Source: an uncultured Deferribacteres bacterium
GTDB lineage: Bacteria > Zhuqueibacterota > Zhuqueibacteria > Zhuqueibacterales > Geothermadaptataceae
DNA length: 40,716 bases
Assembly (NCBI GenBank): GCA_964014485.1
Contig: CAXHAT010000056.1
Coordinates: forward strand, 1 to 40,716
Direction: 5' to 3'
Below are positions 19,294 to 35,793 of the stretch, one piece after another (the stretch's first letter is position 1; each line of letters begins with the position of its first letter). The notes beneath the pieces are model-generated. The model searched no databases and had not been told where the DNA came from. It worked only from the letters and a program-made list of their open reading frames with translations. The position numbers were made by a program, and so were the translations under genes.

Positions 19294-20910
19294 TTAAGCT
19301 TGCAAGCCTGAATACGGAATCCCAGCCAAATGGTGAAGCTCTCGATCAAAGGTAGCAATGTCGTTCTGGCAGAATTGGTTGAGATGCTCATGGCCGCACG
19401 CCCGCGCCATCACTTGCATCAATTCGACGCTGGCTTTAAAGAAATTTTCTAATCGTCGGGCAGAGAGTTCGACATCGAGGCGTTTGCGCAACTCTGGTTT
19501 TTGCGTGGCAATACCAACAGGACAATTGTTTGTATGGCAGGCGCGCATGGCTTGGCAGCCGATGGCTTGAATGGCTGAATTCGACAGCGCGACGGCGTCC
19601 GCGCCCATTGCCAGCGCTTTGATGAAATCCGGAGCTGTACGCAAGCCGCCGGTAATGACAAGCGTGATATCTTTCGCCCCGCGCTTATCCAAGTGTTTGC
19701 GGGCGCGGGCAAGCGCTGGAATCGTCGGCACCGAAATATGATTGCGAAACAGGAGGGGGGCTGCTCCGGTTCCGCCGCCGCGACCGTCCAAGATAATGTA
19801 ATCAACTCCGATTTTGAGCGCGGAATCGATGTCCTGCTCAATGTGATTGGCGGATAACTTGAATCCGATTGGAATGCCGCCGGTCTCAGCGCGAACTTCT
19901 TCTGCAAGACTTTTAAAATCGCCTTCACAGGTTAAGTCAGAAAAACGTGGCGGTGAAATCGCGGAAGTTCCTTCGGGAAGTCCGCGAACCTGGCTGATTT
20001 TTCCCTGATTTTTATGACCGGGGAGATGGCCGCCTGTGCCGGTTTTTGCGCCTTGTCCGCCTTTGAAATGAAACGCTTGCGTTTTTTTGACCAATTCCAT
20101 CGAATAGCCGAATCTTGCGGAAGCGAGTTCGTAAAAATAGCGGCTGTTTTCCGCTTGTTCTTCCGGGAGCATGCCGCCTTCACCGGAGCAAATGCCTGTG
20201 CCCGCTTTTTCTGCGCCGCGCGCTAGTGAAATCTTGGCTTCTTCAGAAAGCGCGCCAAAACTCATATCTGAAACAAACAGAGGAATCTCAAGGCGCAACG
20301 GCTTTTTCGCTCGCGGGCCAATAATCACTTCAGCGCCGACTTCAACGTCTTCCAAATGTGGCAGGCGCGCAAGCTGCGCTGGGAGAATTTGAATATCGTC
20401 CCATTTGGGCAAGTGTTGTGAGCCAACACCCATCGCCGAAACCGGCCCGTGATGTCCGTCTTTGGATAATCCGTATTTTGCAAAGCGGTGAATTTCCGCC
20501 GTCTTGGGCTCCTCCGGCGCATCGTGCGTTGCGACATAGGCGCCTAGGTATTCGGTATGATCGACTTCTGTCGGATTTTTTTCTTCAAAAGCTTCAACTT
20601 CCGCTTCATCGATCCACACTTTTCCGTCAGCAATTTCTGACGTGAACTTGTGTAGAATTTCCGAATTATTATATGCACTGACACCGGTGTCGTAACGATA
20701 ATCCCAGTAGTGAACGCCGCAAATCAAGTTTTCGCCGTCAATGTGACCATCAGCCAACAAAGCGCCGCGATGGAGACACCGACCGTACAGAACGGAAACC
20801 TGATCGTCATAGCGAATGATCACCAAGTCGGTTCTCTTAACCAGCGCATAAGCCGGTTTTCTGTCCTCGAGTTTATCCCAATCGTGTATGGGGATACGTT
20901 TTTGCATCAT
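19294..20910 (-). CDS. Rieske [2Fe-2S] domain fused to FMN-binding glutamate-synthase-like domain
   Basis: Rieske CLH...CGVH; SDMSFGALS, SGEGG, KGGQGAK, DGRGGGTG and the CQAMRACHTNNCP [3Fe-4S] motif; no amidotransferase domain. Confidence 0.9.
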   Translation of the reverse strand: MMQKRIPIHDWDKLEDRKPAYALVKRTDLVIIRYDDQVSVLYGRCLHRGALLADGHIDGENLICGVHYWDYRYDTGVSAYNNSEILHKFTSEIADGKVWIDEAEVEAFEEKNPTEVDHTEYLGAYVATHDAPEEPKTAEIHRFAKYGLSKDGHHGPVSAMGVGSQHLPKWDDIQILPAQLARLPHLEDVEVGAEVIIGPRAKKPLRLEIPLFVSDMSFGALSEEAKISLARGAEKAGTGICSGEGGMLPEEQAENSRYFYELASARFGYSMELVKKTQAFHFKGGQGAKTGTGGHLPGHKNQGKISQVRGLPEGTSAISPPRFSDLTCEGDFKSLAEEVRAETGGIPIGFKLSANHIEQDIDSALKIGVDYIILDGRGGGTGAAPLLFRNHISVPTIPALARARKHLDKRGAKDITLVITGGLRTAPDFIKALAMGADAVALSNSAIQAIGCQAMRACHTNNCPVGIATQKPELRKRLDVELSARRLENFFKASVELMQVMARACGHEHLNQFCQNDIATFDRELHHLAGIPYSGLQA

Positions 20911-26831: not shown

Positions 26832-27626
26832 CTACGACGACTGTAATCTGGTAATCTTTTTTGCTTTCCCGGAATTTCGATCAATATCAACAATAACGGC
26901 TGATAGTTTCAGGTTTTTGTTCGCAACTTCAAAAACACGCGGCGTTTGATAAATAAAGCGTTGGATAGCGATGTCACGTTTCATACCGATAACTGAATCA
27001 TGCGACCCTGTCATTCCAGCATCAGTGATGTACGCCGTGCCGCGCGGCAACACTCTTTCGTCGGCAGTTTGAACATGCGTATGCGTGCCGAATATTGCAC
27101 TTACTCTACCGTCTAAGTACCACCCTAGCGCAATTTTTTCTGCAGTCGCTTCAGCGTGAAAATCAATAATAATATTTTTAGTTTCTTTCGAGATTTGTTT
27201 CAAAACTTCATCCGCGTAACGAAAGGGACATAGAATTGGGTAAAGAAACGTGCGCCCCTGCAAGTTCAGAATTGCAAGTTTGTCTCCTGAACCCAAATCA
27301 AAAATTTTATACCCGCGTCCGATGTTGCCCTCCGGGTAGTTTGCTGGTCTCAAAACGCGTTCTTCTTCGGCGAATAACTCCGCATTTCTCCAATTTTCCC
27401 ATGTATGGTTGCCGCCTGTAATTGCATCGACATTGGCGGCAAAAAAACGTTTTGCTATTTTGAGAGTAATGCCTTTGCCGTTATTATTTGCGTTTTCTCC
27501 ATTAACGATGGTAAAATCAACATTATGCTCAGCTTGTAAACCTGGGAGTAATTTGTAAAGCACGTCACACCCTGGTTGTCCCACAACATCAGCAACGAAC
27601 ATGACGCGCAATAAACTTTCTGTCAT
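26832..27626 (-). CDS. ymdB: YmdB-like metallophosphoesterase (TIGR00282 family)
   Basis: DVVG.PG, NGEN, TGGNH, RPANYP, DFHAEATAEK, GTHTHVQTAD, TDAGMTG; sits directly downstream of rny. Confidence 0.93.
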   Translation of the reverse strand: MTESLLRVMFVADVVGQPGCDVLYKLLPGLQAEHNVDFTIVNGENANNNGKGITLKIAKRFFAANVDAITGGNHTWENWRNAELFAEEERVLRPANYPEGNIGRGYKIFDLGSGDKLAILNLQGRTFLYPILCPFRYADEVLKQISKETKNIIIDFHAEATAEKIALGWYLDGRVSAIFGTHTHVQTADERVLPRGTAYITDAGMTGSHDSVIGMKRDIAIQRFIYQTPRVFEVANKNLKLSAVIVDIDRNSGKAKKITRLQSS

Positions 27627-27661: not shown

Positions 27662-29227
27662 CTATTTGGCATAGCCAAATGTACGGTATTCTCGAATTAC
27701 GGATACTTTGATTTGTCCCGGATATGAAAGCGTATCTTTAATTTGTCCTGAAATGCTCGAGGCGATAAAATCAGGATGCGAATCGTCGGTGTTATCGTAT
27801 CCGGCTATAACACGGATCTCCTTACCTGCTTGAATTGCATAGCTTTGCGTCACGCCTTTGAGGGAATTGGCGATCTGCTCGAGATTTCGCAAACGATCGA
27901 AGTAGCTCTGCAAATCTTCTTTCACGGCCCCTGGACGATACATGCTTATCTCATTTGCAGAAGCGACAAGCACGGAAATCAATGATTGCCCAATCGAGTC
28001 CGGCGGTTTATTTGCAAAAGCAATAGCCTTTAAAACTTCTTCGTTTTCGCCGTATTTCTTGGCTAAATCCGCCGACAATTCCGACGTAGTGCCGTGAGTG
28101 TATGCGTCAATAGCGTTACCGATTTCATGTAAGAGACCGGCTCGTTTTGCAACTTTCGTGTCCAATTCCAAATCTGAGGCCATCAAGCCGGCTAAGGTTG
28201 CAACCTCGATTGAATGCTGAAGAAGATTCTGACCCTGGCCAGTATGAAACTTGAGCTGTCCGATCAATTTGACAAGCTCATGGTGCAAGCTGTGCAGCCC
28301 GACTTCAACGAGTGCTTCTTCACCGTACTCAAAGATTTTCTCATCTATTTCTTGCCGGGTCTTATCAATGACCTCTTCGATCCTCCCTGGATGAATCCGG
28401 CCGTCGTAGATCAATTTTTCCAGAGCCAACTTAGCGACTTCCCGCCGTATAGGATCAAAACCGGAAAGCATCACTAAGCCAGGCGTATCATCAATTAAAA
28501 CTTCAACGCCGGTTGCAGCTTCAAAAGTTCTTATGTTTCTACCTTCTCTGCCGATTATCCTGCCCTTCATTTCATCCGCAGGCAAACTTACTGGACTTAC
28601 CGTCGCATCAACCACATGGCTAACTCCGCTGCGCTCTATGGCCTGGACAATAATTTCTTTTGATTTTTGTTCTGCGGACTCTTTTGCCATCTCAATAATT
28701 TCCCGAGTCTTGAATGACGCTTCCTGGCGTGCTAAGTCAAGGACGTTATCGAGTTGTATTTTCTTGGCTTCTTCAACTGTTAGGCCTGAAATTTCCTTAA
28801 GTTTTGAGCTTTGTTCTAGAATAAGCTGATCCAAATCAGCCGACTTGTCTTTTAAAAGCTGATCAAGGCGCTCTATTTCCTGCTGTTCCTCAAAAATCTT
28901 CTTCTCTTTATTATTTAAAATGTCAACTTTGCGGTCCAGATTGGTTTCTCGCGCGCTAAGCTTTTTCTCTCGGTTTTTGAATTGTTGTAAGCGCTCTCTC
29001 TCTTCATGATGAAGTTTTTCTCGAAGCTTTAGAATCTCTTCTTCAGCATCCAACAAACGCGCTTTTTTAACGTCTTCCGCTTCTTGTTGCGCCTCATTTA
29101 CAACTCGCGTCGCATATTCCTCCGCTCGAGATATGCGATCCTGTCCAATTTTCGCTCTTAGCTTCCAACCTCCCCAGAATGCCAAACTGGAAACAACAAG
29201 AAATATTATTGCTCCTAAAACATCCAT
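27662..29227 (-). CDS. rny: Ribonuclease Y homolog with degenerate HD domain
   Basis: N-terminal TM, coiled coil, KH (KGRIIGREGRNIR), DGRIHPGRIEE, AIQAG.EIRV, YPGQIKV.VIRE; HD motif reads HE. Confidence 0.92.
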   Translation of the reverse strand: MDVLGAIIFLVVSSLAFWGGWKLRAKIGQDRISRAEEYATRVVNEAQQEAEDVKKARLLDAEEEILKLREKLHHEERERLQQFKNREKKLSARETNLDRKVDILNNKEKKIFEEQQEIERLDQLLKDKSADLDQLILEQSSKLKEISGLTVEEAKKIQLDNVLDLARQEASFKTREIIEMAKESAEQKSKEIIVQAIERSGVSHVVDATVSPVSLPADEMKGRIIGREGRNIRTFEAATGVEVLIDDTPGLVMLSGFDPIRREVAKLALEKLIYDGRIHPGRIEEVIDKTRQEIDEKIFEYGEEALVEVGLHSLHHELVKLIGQLKFHTGQGQNLLQHSIEVATLAGLMASDLELDTKVAKRAGLLHEIGNAIDAYTHGTTSELSADLAKKYGENEEVLKAIAFANKPPDSIGQSLISVLVASANEISMYRPGAVKEDLQSYFDRLRNLEQIANSLKGVTQSYAIQAGKEIRVIAGYDNTDDSHPDFIASSISGQIKDTLSYPGQIKVSVIREYRTFGYAK

Positions 29228-29314: not shown

Positions 29315-29611
29315 TCAAGAATTGATATTGTCCTCAGTATTTTCTATCAGTTCGGAAAGCCGCATAAGATTTTTTTCGTATTCCGCCGTCTGGGCGCCAC
29401 GCAACTCGCGCTCTCGAAACAACTCATCCGCCAAGTTTAGCGCTGTCAACACTGCAACCTTCAAAGGGGATTTTGCTGTAGAATTCTTTTCGACCTCATG
29501 CATTGCATGATCGACAAAATCCGCAATACGACGCGTATATTCCGCGTCGGCTGAACCTTTGATCGAGTAGTCGGAGCCGAAGATTTTTAGTTTCACATGG
29601 TTTTTCTGCAA
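29315..29611 (-). CDS. zapA: Cell division protein ZapA
   Basis: IFG..Y, IA.FVD..M, VAVLTALNLADEL; pheT-zapB-zapA-rny synteny. Confidence 0.9.
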   Translation of the reverse strand: MQKNHVKLKIFGSDYSIKGSADAEYTRRIADFVDHAMHEVEKNSTAKSPLKVAVLTALNLADELFRERELRGAQTAEYEKNLMRLSELIENTEDNINS

Positions 29612-29642: not shown

Positions 29643-29897
29643 TTACTCGTTCTTAAGCAATGCTTGGACTTTCGGCAAGATGAATGAAAGCTTCGATCTC
29701 ACAAGCCCGAGTTGTTGCTGTAATTGCTTCAATTCCGCTACTTCTTTTTTCTGGTCGGTCAGAATGGAATTCAATTTTGTAAATTCTTCGTTGAGTGCAG
29801 ATAGCTCACGTTTCAGTGTCTGGTTCTCCCTCTCAGTTCTGTTCAAACGAGCAATGAGAGAGACGATTTTGGATTCGAGAGCATTAAATTGTTCCAT
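29643..29897 (-). CDS. ZapB-like coiled-coil protein
   Basis: MEQFNALESKI..LI..L..EN..L coiled coil lying between pheT and zapA. Confidence 0.7.
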   Translation of the reverse strand: MEQFNALESKIVSLIARLNRTERENQTLKRELSALNEEFTKLNSILTDQKKEVAELKQLQQQLGLVRSKLSFILPKVQALLKNE

Positions 29898-29911
29898 ACC
29901 GAGCAATGCAA

Positions 29912-32302
29912 TCACCCTCTGAGCGTTGCGTCGAAGTTCTTTTTGAGCTTTTTCAAAACCCGGTCTATAAGTTTTTCGACTTCACGAGATTTTATTGTTC
30001 GCTTGGTAGACTGAAATTTAAGCGCATAGGCCAAGCTCTTTTTACCCGTAGGGATTGATTTCCCTTCATAAATGTCAAAGAGGCTAATTTGGGTCAGGAG
30101 ACTTCCAGCTTCCTTTTTCAACAATGCTTCTACATCAGAAGCTGCGACGCTTTTATCAAGAACAATAGCCAGATCTCTTTCAACTTCCGGAAAAGGTGAG
30201 ATTTCATGATAAATCTCCTGAGGAGTCGCCGATTTCTTCAATCGCCCACAATCAATCTCAAAGCCGAAAACATCCTGTGTTATATCAAAAAGATCACAAA
30301 CTTGGGGACTAATTTTGCCGATTGTCCCGATGATTGTATCGTTAACTTTGATTGCCGCTCCGAATTCAAAGAATGCTTGTTCTATCGGATTGAACATCAC
30401 CTCTTCTCTTAAACCAGTTCGATGAAGCAATTCAATTGCGATCCCTTTTAAATCAAAAAACGAAATTGGGCTTGCCTTGCTTTGCCACGACTCATGAAAT
30501 CTGTTTCCGGAGAGAACCCCGCCTAAATGTTGGAATTCGTGTATGGTGCCGTCTTTCGCCTTGTGAAAAGCGCTGCCAATTTCAAAAAAGCGAAGCTGCG
30601 TTTGTTTACGATTAACATTGTAGGAAACGGCTGGAAGCATCGTGCTAAGAAGAGACGGGCGCAGAACCGCCAAATCTTCACTCAGAGGATTCAGCAGCCC
30701 GACCAAGTGCTCTTGCTCTTCAACAAACGGCAGACAAAACTTTTCGTTTGTCATGCTAAAAGTTACAATTTCCGAGAGCGAAATATTCAGGCAGGTTTTT
30801 CTTAGTGTATCAGCAAAAATCCGGTTTCTGTTTGGCGTGTGTTGCAGGTCGAATCTGTCATTAAAATTTGCAGCGACCTCGTCATAACCGAAAACGCGAA
30901 TAACTTCCTCAACGAGATCAATTTCGCGCACTAGATCGGGCCTAAAAGTCGGCGGAGTGACGTTCCATTCTTTCCCGTTCTTCTCAACCGTACATCCCAG
31001 GCCTTCAAAAATGGATGACATAGTTGCATCGTCTATCTCCGCACCACAAATTGAAACGGCGCGCTGAGGGCGGAACGAAATTTTTTGAGAATGAATAATT
31101 GATGGATAGGCGTCGTTCAAATTTGACGTAGGCATCCCCCCTGCCGTCTCCAAAATCAGATGTGTTGCAATATCCGAAGCGTTAGCGCATCCGTTCGGGT
31201 CGACTCCTCGCTCAAAACGGCGACTGGCTTCCGTGAAAATGCTCAACTGACGCACTGTTTTTCGAATCGTTTCTGGAGAAAAGTAAGCAGACTCCAAAAG
31301 CAAATTTGTTGTGTCATCGCTGACTTCGGAATTCTCACCGCCCATGACGCCGGCTAAAGCAACCGGGGTTTCGCCGTCACAAATAAGAAGATTGTTTTCT
31401 TTGAGTTCGTGGCTTTTACCATCCAGAGTGACGAAATTCTCGCCTGTTTGAGCAAGACGCACGACAATTTCTTGATTCTCTAGCTTATCTAAATCAAAAG
31501 CGTGCAAAGGTTGTCCGGTCAAAAGCATGACGCAATTTGTTGCGTCAACGACGTTGTTTATTGGCCTGACGCCAGCGCTCTTAAGACGCTGCGCCAACCA
31601 ATCTGGGGACGGGCCAATTTTGACGTCCCGAATAACTCGCGCGGTATAGCGGGGGCACCCTCGACTGTCATCAAGTCGAACTTTGTATTCTTCTTCAGGC
31701 TGAACTCTATCGGTTATTTGAGGGTATTCATATTTAAAAGCTCTGCCTTCACTCAAACAAATTTCGCGAGCAATTCCAATCATTCCCAGGCAATCGGGAC
31801 GATTGGGCGTTATCGCCACTTCGATCACAGGATCATCATCGAAATGAACCAAGTCTCCGAATGCTTGTCCCTTAGAAGCGTCTCCATTCAAAACCATTAT
31901 CCCCGAAGACTCTTCTGAAATGCCTAGCTCAGCTTCAGAACAAATCATTCCCTGAGACAAAGTTCCGCGCAATTTCGCTTTTCGAATTTTCATTCCGCCC
32001 GGCAAAACTGAACCGACTGTGGCCACAGGAACTCTTTGCCCTTTTGCGACATTCGGAGCGCCGCATACAATCTGCAAATCCGCCTCGTCGCCAACGGAAA
32101 CCTGGCATACGCTCAAGTGATCGGAACCCTCGATTTTTGCCGCGTCAATAATTTCTCCAACCACTATCCCGGCGAAATCAAAACGTTCCGAGCGCTTGAC
32201 GCTTTCGACTTCTATGCCCAGCATCGTCAATCGCTCAACGACTTCATCGAGTGAGAGCTTGGTTCCCGATAATTCCTTTAACCAATTAAATCCGAATTGC
32301 AC
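29912..32302 (-). CDS. pheT: Phenylalanine--tRNA ligase beta subunit
   Basis: IVCGAPN, SQGMICS..ELG, TPNRPD, RPINNVVDATN, RFERGVD, RPDL..EIDLVEE, C-terminal FDX-ACB domain. Confidence 0.98.
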   Translation of the reverse strand: MQFGFNWLKELSGTKLSLDEVVERLTMLGIEVESVKRSERFDFAGIVVGEIIDAAKIEGSDHLSVCQVSVGDEADLQIVCGAPNVAKGQRVPVATVGSVLPGGMKIRKAKLRGTLSQGMICSEAELGISEESSGIMVLNGDASKGQAFGDLVHFDDDPVIEVAITPNRPDCLGMIGIAREICLSEGRAFKYEYPQITDRVQPEEEYKVRLDDSRGCPRYTARVIRDVKIGPSPDWLAQRLKSAGVRPINNVVDATNCVMLLTGQPLHAFDLDKLENQEIVVRLAQTGENFVTLDGKSHELKENNLLICDGETPVALAGVMGGENSEVSDDTTNLLLESAYFSPETIRKTVRQLSIFTEASRRFERGVDPNGCANASDIATHLILETAGGMPTSNLNDAYPSIIHSQKISFRPQRAVSICGAEIDDATMSSIFEGLGCTVEKNGKEWNVTPPTFRPDLVREIDLVEEVIRVFGYDEVAANFNDRFDLQHTPNRNRIFADTLRKTCLNISLSEIVTFSMTNEKFCLPFVEEQEHLVGLLNPLSEDLAVLRPSLLSTMLPAVSYNVNRKQTQLRFFEIGSAFHKAKDGTIHEFQHLGGVLSGNRFHESWQSKASPISFFDLKGIAIELLHRTGLREEVMFNPIEQAFFEFGAAIKVNDTIIGTIGKISPQVCDLFDITQDVFGFEIDCGRLKKSATPQEIYHEISPFPEVERDLAIVLDKSVAASDVEALLKKEAGSLLTQISLFDIYEGKSIPTGKKSLAYALKFQSTKRTIKSREVEKLIDRVLKKLKKNFDATLRG

Positions 32303-34752: not shown

Positions 34753-35793
34753 TCAGTCTTCAAGGGAAGGCGGTTTGCGGAACTTTTTAATCGAACTCCT
34801 TTTTTTCTTCTGCTTCAATCTGCCTTCAATCGATGACTTTGTGCGCTTCGTCGGCACACGTTTCTTTGCGACGGCGTTCATAGATGTGAGCTTCTCGATC
34901 AAGCGCTCCCATGCTAACTCGCGATTCTTATGTTGTGAGCGGCTTTCCGTCGCGGTAACGATTAGACCTGTGGGCAAATGTTTAATGCGCACTGCAGTTT
35001 CAACCTTATTTCGATGCTGCCCGCCTGGCCCGCTTGAGCGATAAACGGTGATTTCGACTTCGTCCTTAACCTGTTCTTTAGAGCGAAATTGATATTTTTT
35101 TCCAGTTTTACTTTGCCGCGCTTCCTGGCCAATAAGGTCGTTCAAGGCGGCTGTGATGTTCGGAAAACAATCAATCGCCCCAGCTTCGCGTAAGGCCGCT
35201 TCCGAAGTCGTTCCGGTGGTCACGCCGACAAACGGCACGTTGGCTTTCTTCGCAGCGCCAGCATCGGCGAGACTGTCGCCGAAAAAGATTGCTTCGTCGG
35301 CGGTAACTTTCATTTTCCGTAATCCTAGGAAAATCGAATCCGGCGCCGGTTTTTGGTTCTCAACATCGTCAGCGCCGACGACAACTTCGAACAAAGATGT
35401 TAAATCATAATTTTCGAGAATCTCAACGAGCCGATTGTGATTCTTTGTGGAAATCAAACCAAAACGTAACGGCGTTTTGGCGGCGACTTCGCGAACGGAA
35501 TCAGCGACGCCTTTGTATAAAAAAGTCTTCTCGACCATGATTTTGTCAGCCAATGAAATGAACGCCAGTTTTGCTTCCGCCGGGTCTTCAACGGCAAAAC
35601 GTTTGAAAATCACTTCTAACGGCAATCCTACGGTCTTATGAATTTCATCAACGGAGCGCTTGGGAGCGCCAACCTTCTCAAGCGCGAAATTGACACACTC
35701 GACAATCGCTTCGGAAGAGTCTCCTAAAGTGAAATCGAAATCGAAAAAAATGACTTTCGCCCAATTTTGGATGGGTCGTTCCATGATCTTCAC
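34753..35793 (-). CDS. HAD-family phosphatase fused to an ArfB-like GGQ peptidyl-tRNA hydrolase domain
   Basis: DFDFT, STK, KP, GDSLAD HAD motifs, then RSSGPGGQHRNKVETAVR...RSQHKNR and a basic tail KKRVPTK...RLKQKKKRSSIKK; start 35793 or 35784. Confidence 0.88.
   Translation of the reverse strand: MKIMERPIQNWAKVIFFDFDFTLGDSSEAIVECVNFALEKVGAPKRSVDEIHKTVGLPLEVIFKRFAVEDPAEAKLAFISLADKIMVEKTFLYKGVADSVREVAAKTPLRFGLISTKNHNRLVEILENYDLTSLFEVVVGADDVENQKPAPDSIFLGLRKMKVTADEAIFFGDSLADAGAAKKANVPFVGVTTGTTSEAALREAGAIDCFPNITAALNDLIGQEARQSKTGKKYQFRSKEQVKDEVEITVYRSSGPGGQHRNKVETAVRIKHLPTGLIVTATESRSQHKNRELAWERLIEKLTSMNAVAKKRVPTKRTKSSIEGRLKQKKKRSSIKKFRKPPSLED

Follow-up and report, generated by a model that had tools for sequence, protein, structure and literature searches.

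RNase Y initiates mRNA decay in many bacteria. In the window (the whole 40,716-nt stretch of DNA analysed here), an rny gene, hereafter copy A, lies in the gene order pheS-pheT-zapB-like-zapA-rny-ymdB-tRNA, flanked by zapA and ymdB in the same manner as the single-copy rny genes of the phylum (Table 1). An earlier note on this DNA had described an intact, full-length ORF at the usual rny locus, encoding a membrane anchor, coiled coil, KH domain and C-terminal domain, and our analysis agrees on each of these points: the frame is open, the whole-protein score against the RNase Y model TIGR03319 (591.7 bits) passes the family cut-off of 454.35, and hydropathy, Pfam matches and the structure model return the same domain layout. 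Profile matches were obtained for RNase_Y_N (PF12072, aa 7–201), KH_1 (aa 216–270) and HD (aa 336–410). Across 33 A copies, the highest hydropathy over 19 residues has a mean of 2.3, and the KH motif KGRIIG.EGRNI is invariant in 39/39 A copies.

Table 1. Genes, domains and HD-site positions at the rny locus (window coordinates; aa, residues of copy A)
Feature	Position	Strand	Basis or remark
zapB-like coiled-coil gene	29643..29915	-	between pheT and zapA
zapA	29315..29611	-	upstream of copy A, 87 bp gap
Disarmed RNase Y (copy A, P0001), 521 aa	27662..29227	-	open ORF; domain and family profile matches
Predicted membrane anchor, hydrophobic N-terminal segment, aa 1–25	29153..29227	-	sequence, hydropathy
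N-terminal coiled-coil region, aa 26–205	28613..29152	-	PF12072 match; in B. subtilis RNase Y, the region of dimerization (PMC9775385)
KH RNA-binding domain, aa 208–272	28412..28606	-	GxxG loop intact (GREG, 28541–28552)
His338, first HD-site ligand, kept (QHS)	28214..28216	-	39/39 A copies
His367-Glu368 in place of the HD dyad (LLHEIGN)	28124..28129	-	Glu in 22/22 copies of this order
Thr381 (HGTT) in place of the second-metal His of the GTH motif	28085..28087	-	
SHH replaced by FAN, both second-metal histidines absent	28010..28018	-	
Asn425 (ASANE) replacing the last Asp ligand	27953..27955	-	Asn in 22/22 copies of this order
C-terminal domain, aa 433–521, predicted second dimer contact	27665..27931	-	structure model; section 4.2 of PMC9775385
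ymdB metallophosphoesterase	26832..27626	-	downstream of copy A, 35 bp gap

AlphaFold models of the KH, HD and C-terminal parts of copy A (pLDDT 87) and of copy B, the second RNase Y of this genome (pLDDT 90), contain the same elements, and the nearest Atlas structures to copy A are RNase Y models (TM 0.82–0.94). A PDB sequence search with copy A returned only an archaeal KH protein, Foldseek gave domain-level matches only (HD, KH and a cation-transporter C-terminal domain), and no solved RNase Y structure was found in the PDB searches. An Rfam search of the window revealed three tRNAs and no other element, with none in the zapA-rny gap, while the promoter and terminator scan gave matches at chance level.

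Two further ORFs on the reverse strand of the window encode fused domains. In the ORF at 34753–35793, a HAD-family phosphatase (aa 15–191) is followed by a peptidyl-tRNA hydrolase domain of the RF-1/GGQ type (aa 243–337; ArfB/PrfH-like); the full-length form of this fusion occurs in genome G001 (50 % identity) and is absent from G002, G004 and G010. The ORF at 19294–20910 combines a Rieske [2Fe-2S] domain with a glutamate-synthase FMN domain and adjoins a GMC oxidoreductase. On another contig, a 6S RNA-like match (L123, G000:C23:30008-30189, reverse strand) scored 43.2 bits, below the Rfam cut-off of 46.4.

The metal site of copy A

The earlier note had called this protein catalytically dead on account of its HD domain, and on re-checking we found the same motifs at the same coordinates. 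Copy A carries H338, H367, E368, T381, A405, N406 and N425 at the positions where the canonical site has H, H, D, H, H, H and D; five of the seven metal ligands are replaced, leaving only H338 and H367, i.e. the first His and the His of the HD dyad, as had been claimed. H367 is present in all 39 A copies that have lost ligands of this site (termed disarmed here), and both GAA and GAG codons occur at E368 among the A copies of this order. The Lys of HDIGK is also replaced (N371), and basic residues close to the site are worn down in A (K371, R435 and, in part, R328). In the scheme set out in part of PMC8177086, polynuclear HD phosphodiesterases display H..HD..H..HH..D and mononuclear ones H..HD..D. 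Against the first motif, copy A reads H..HE..T..AN..N, which places it outside the catalytic-site definition of RNase Y; against the second, copy A and 22/22 A copies of its order read H..HE..N.

The note had also raised the possibility that reads show canonical codons. Contigs from three marine metagenome runs (one study, possibly the source of the assembly) span the codons piecewise and contain no alternative letter, and a contig search with P0001 returned 10 loci, only one of them from this clade. Sequencing error was rejected, and assembly error is highly improbable, on the basis of the agreeing contigs and the presence of the same substitutions in 64 homologue clusters.

HD mutations almost abolish cleavage by B. 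subtilis RNase Y (part of PMC10303841), and an inactivating double mutant is also described in a portion of PMC5436854. Since such HD mutants are inactive, and both carboxylates and three histidines are changed here, we infer that copy A likely does not cut RNA, 'dead' being a reading of its sequence and not a measurement.

A second RNase Y and the distribution of the two copies

The genome (G000, 97 % complete) encodes a second RNase Y, copy B, on contig C111, with 40 % identity to copy A. Copy B possesses all seven ligands (LKHSK/MHDIGK/GTHT/SHHED/AADS) as well as an anchor and a KH domain, the GxxG loop of which has both Gly residues invariant in 33/33 B copies; the coiled coils of A and B are 31 % identical. 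Copy B comes after mtaB/miaB-like genes, one gene for an acyl-CoA dehydrogenase and one for a hypothetical protein of 132 aa, and precedes ccmE and ccmF. RNase E/G (matched in 145/151 phylum genomes), PNPase and one RicT/PSP1 gene are also encoded in G000, while RNase J was not found there. The search for a second rny or for RNase E/G/J suggested in the note thus yielded an rny and RNase E/G, and a lone dead enzyme was rejected as a reading: copies A and B form a paralogue pair.

The 132-aa protein (L032:6391-6789, forward strand), which has no Pfam match, lies directly upstream of B in all 28 B loci examined (families f1, f2, f5 and f9) and is a candidate partner of B. RicT/PSP1 is a single gene in 28/30 two-copy genomes; a RicT/PSP1 match is absent from G049 and G061 (family f15, two-copy, 97 and 77 % complete, respectively).

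An RNase Y match was obtained in 141/151 phylum genomes searched, from which we extracted 110 ORFs as a chosen subset of the matches: 39 disarmed zapA-locus genes (A), 38 intact second genes (B) and 33 intact single zapA-locus genes (S). Homologues are labelled as candidate division KSB1, with some assigned to Calditrichota, Caldithrix or others. Wherever both copies were fetched, A is disarmed and B intact (34/34 genomes), and the zapA-locus gene is intact in 33/33 single-copy genomes examined. Only A was fetched from G019, G023, G025 and G105 and only B from G041, G058, G063 and G094, each of which has two matches. The exception is G059 (72 % complete, 1.4 Mb), in which A is partly disarmed and a second match is absent; three apparent two-copy genomes in single-copy families proved to be genes split over contig ends.

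The note had asked whether relatives share the substitutions, and they do. Among the 119 best homologues, 64 display HE...N, 44 retain HD with other ligands lost, 1 reads HA...N and 10 are canonical, while 131 of 148 diverse RNase Y representatives carry the full ligand set. Within the phylum the loss is graded: in families f15, f17, f21 and f22, HD is kept, HH is lost, the GTH His is lost in 8/9 and the last Asp kept in 7/9 copies; f5 and f9 are similar, with the last Asp kept in 5/8; and in this order (f1 and f2), HE and Asn are found in 22/22, although these are counts over non-independent kin with few events behind them. The mononuclear H..HD..D set is complete in 12/17 A copies outside this order. 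Ligand loss is real, lineage-wide and unusual for the RNase Y family.

Outside the A clade, representatives P0237, P0247, P0254, P0266 and P0221 have lost several HD-site ligands; they are scattered in the tree, and their losses probably have separate origins. In the RNase Y of Chlorobaculum (P0165/P0275), which reads HDIGL, the last Asp ligand is replaced by Asn and the histidines are kept; in total 10/148 representatives, Chlorobaculum included, retain HD and the next His with Asn at the last position.

Descent and selection

In the RNase Y trees, A genes nest among the single-copy genes of the phylum, whereas B genes form their own clade (support 97–100), the branching of which mirrors that of A. 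Tree position and pheT-zapA-rny-ymdB synteny support the orthology of A to single-copy RNase Y. Monophyly of the A genes received a support of 94 in one tree and was split in two others (AU p=0.47). An rpoB+pnp tree of 59 genomes placed the two-copy lineages in two separate clades, and a single clade was narrowly rejected (AU p=0.038, a borderline value from a quick LG+G4 search with no mixture model); the signal of a ymdB+zapA+pheT tree was too weak for use. The residue replacing the first His of HH varies by group, being mostly F, Q or A. As single-copy lineages are unlikely to have recovered ligands once these were gone, disarming of A probably occurred at least twice, each time where B is present. 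It was probably stepwise, with the second-metal histidines going first, followed in this order by HD to HE and D to N.

As for B, the group that follows its nearest representatives in the tree is labelled WOR-3; the alternatives for its origin are a deep paralogue that other lineages have lost and a gene gained by transfer. In the representatives nearest to B (P0186, P0192, P0142, P0132, P0220, P0136 and P0180), the DGRIHP linker motif is eroded and the KH loops vary, features which suggest that 'second' RNase Y genes form a wider subfamily.

For 19 genomes of this order, we compared divergence among A copies with that among B copies. Mean identity is similar for KH (0.85 in both) and for the coiled coil (0.57 for A, 0.56 for B), and lower in A than in B for the linker (0.66 versus 0.77), HD domain (0.59 versus 0.82) and C-terminal domain (0.65 versus 0.80). 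Pooled dN/dS (Nei-Gojobori, whole-gene dS, saturated pairs dropped) is 0.055 for A (7/9 pairs retained) and 0.054 for B (6/8 pairs retained), these pairs excluding G000, whose nearest relatives are 58–61 % identical. Taken by domain, as the note had recommended, dN/dS in A is 0.022 for KH and 0.054 for HD, the latter set against 0.019 for the HD domain of B. No stops or frameshifts occur among the 39 A copies. In the coiled coil (0.43 versus 0.33) and KH-HD linker (0.60 versus 0.41), similarity to the S genes is higher for A than for B, while in the HD domain it is higher for B (0.64 versus 0.54). Conserved KH and linker sites of B show mild drift (R233K in 37/38, D275N in 34/38 and R277K in 35/38 copies), and Q466S is found in 38/38.

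Given its low dN/dS and a KH domain as conserved as that of B, copy A is maintained by purifying selection, which has loosened chiefly over the HD and C-terminal domains. The claim in the earlier note of selection for a non-catalytic protein thus stands in part: the protein is kept, its site is non-canonical and the changes are lineage-wide, while the non-cutting state is only probable.

Interpretation and comparison with known systems

RNase Y by descent, locus and HMM, and departing from the active-site motif, copy A is a probable pseudo-RNase Y paralogue. Our preferred reading, which we hold at a probability of roughly 50 %, is that A is the ancestral RNase Y, now a non-cutting, membrane-tethered, RNA-binding partner that tunes intact B. 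On this model, B would have been present or acquired first; A would then have lost its second-metal histidines on at least two separate occasions, with the HD and last-Asp ligands changing later in this order. Unable to cut RNA, A would still bind single-stranded RNA at the membrane via its KH domain and, in what is the weakest step, would act on B through mixed oligomers formed by the coiled coil and C-terminal domain or, alternatively, compete with B for the same RNAs and partners. The outcome would be that A either shields RNAs, like the dominant-negative B. subtilis HD mutant, or hands them to the active subunit. Precedent is found in part of PMC10303841, which describes inactive B. subtilis RNase Y as dominant-negative and proposes mixed oligomers, and in part of PMC9775385, in which RNase Y dimerizes via the coiled coil and, according to models, also via the C-terminal domain, and a basic hole lies close to KH.

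Several observations weigh against pairing. B keeps its own GxxG loop and so has no obvious need of A for RNA binding, and the coiled coils of the two have diverged to the identity given above. Complex prediction with A (494 aa) and B (488 aa), using a 33-row alignment for each, scored 0.25 (mark 0.32) and speaks neither for nor against a complex. Rate covariation over 45 branches from 24 genomes is ordinary for A and B (r=0.18; N-terminal parts −0.05; C-terminal part of A versus B 0.37), and values for A with RNase E/G, PNPase, RicT and ymdB were 0.44, 0.39, 0.18 and −0.13, respectively. The test is a weak one, with non-independent branches and ten control genes, and the unrelated pair RNase E/G-IF3 scores higher (0.48); no partner of A was singled out.

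The main rival to the partner reading is a residual His-His-Glu one-metal site. Here, A would have rebuilt its site from His338, His367, Glu368 and Asn425 for a new function, either as a small-nucleotide phosphohydrolase or as a KH-coupled metal or nucleotide sensor, beside the phosphodiesterase YmdB. An inert site need not show the invariance of H338, H367, E368 and N425 seen in this order, where synonymous codons vary, and dN/dS of the HD domain is still low; moreover, the H..HD..D set retained by most A copies outside this order is enough for YfbR/YpgQ-type enzymes, and nuclearity and activity are not inferable from sequence alone (both from part of PMC8177086). However, neither carboxylate of the mononuclear motif is left unchanged here, K371 and R435 are lost, buried histidines may be retained for folding, and covariation of A with ymdB is absent, such that we consider this function doubtful. 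Somewhat more credible, if still tentative, is a combination in which the RNase Y of KSB1 is a two-subunit enzyme and A, disarmed stepwise and at least twice, is an RNA-selecting, partner-contacting regulatory subunit with a His-His-Glu one-metal or nucleotide-sensing switch pocket; if true, an enzyme of global mRNA decay would here have a dominant-negative form that is natural and tunable.

We consider it similarly unlikely that A, though non-catalytic, works without B, as a homodimeric membrane protein that binds RNA or serves as a scaffold and retains ancestral contacts (RicT, PNPase and RNase E/G). The more ancestral coiled coil and linker of A, the higher covariation of its rates with RNase E/G and PNPase than with B and the single RicT/PSP1 gene of most two-copy genomes would all fit; nevertheless, the limits of the covariation test apply equally to these values, the value for RicT is no higher than that for B, and no A without B was found in the near-complete genomes examined, a pattern also expected if B just supplies the nuclease. 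That A is still an endoribonuclease, slower or of other specificity, is improbable: D-to-E and D-to-N are conservative changes, the last-position Asn of Chlorobaculum and similar representatives indicates that this change alone may be tolerated, and the modelled fold is intact, but five ligands are changed together where single HD mutations nearly abolish activity in B. subtilis, and the disarmed state is nearly confined to genomes with an intact copy. Least probable is that A is redundant and decaying neutrally, or that its changes stem from assembly errors. The terminal branch of the G000 A copy is long (0.48) and the HD and C-terminal domains of A diverge faster than those of B; the G000 B branch is also long (0.32), however, and neutral decay was rejected in view of the dN/dS of A, its 39 open copies and the substitutions shared with relatives, the last of which, with the agreeing contigs, speak against error too.

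The natural pair of A and B matters in that the RNA-binding and ancestral contact surfaces remain in A and the metal site in B, such that division of labour can be tested; from the graded series of relatives, it can be seen which ligands are lost first. Both copies are labelled 'ribonuclease Y' in databases, and annotation by synteny or HMM consequently takes the gene that is probably inactive for the enzyme. In the literature searched (mostly non-subscription main texts), we found no RNase Y paralogue described as lacking its ligands, and parts of the reviews PMC3997798 and PMC11261784 make no mention of such paralogues.

Copy A resembles RNase Y of the B. subtilis type (Rny/YmdA/CvfA, TIGR03319) in its order of anchor, coiled coil, KH, HD and C-terminal domain, and the single-copy RNase Y of the phylum in its zapA-rny-ymdB locus; it differs from RNase Y in keeping two of seven ligands and in coexisting with an intact RNase Y at another locus. 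It is also reminiscent of the engineered B. subtilis H368A/D369A RNase Y (part of PMC10303841), being full-length with no working HD dyad; however, the laboratory mutant is otherwise identical to its partner, whereas A and B are natural paralogues at 40 % identity, for which mixing is not guaranteed. Among other HD proteins, the degenerate HD-GYP protein Bd1817, which is inactive, with its last Asp changed to Asn and its GYP motif degraded (part of PMC8177086), shares the HD fold and the Asp-to-Asn change. The one-metal H..HD..D site of YfbR/YpgQ resembles the A copies of neighbouring families and not this protein, which lacks both carboxylates of that motif; neither Bd1817 nor YfbR/YpgQ has the anchor, coiled coil and KH domain of copy A.

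Finally, the pair of A and B is similar to RNase J1/J2 of Firmicutes, where a ribonuclease persists alongside a catalytically weaker paralogue. RNase J2 has weak activity, and RNase J1/J2 differs from A and B in being soluble and of another fold, that of the metallo-beta-lactamases. RNases J1 and J2 come together in a complex whose behaviour is altered (cited in PMC3997798; PMC7864078), which is shown for that pair and not for A and B. By analogy, copy A may work like the weaker partner of RNase J1/J2.
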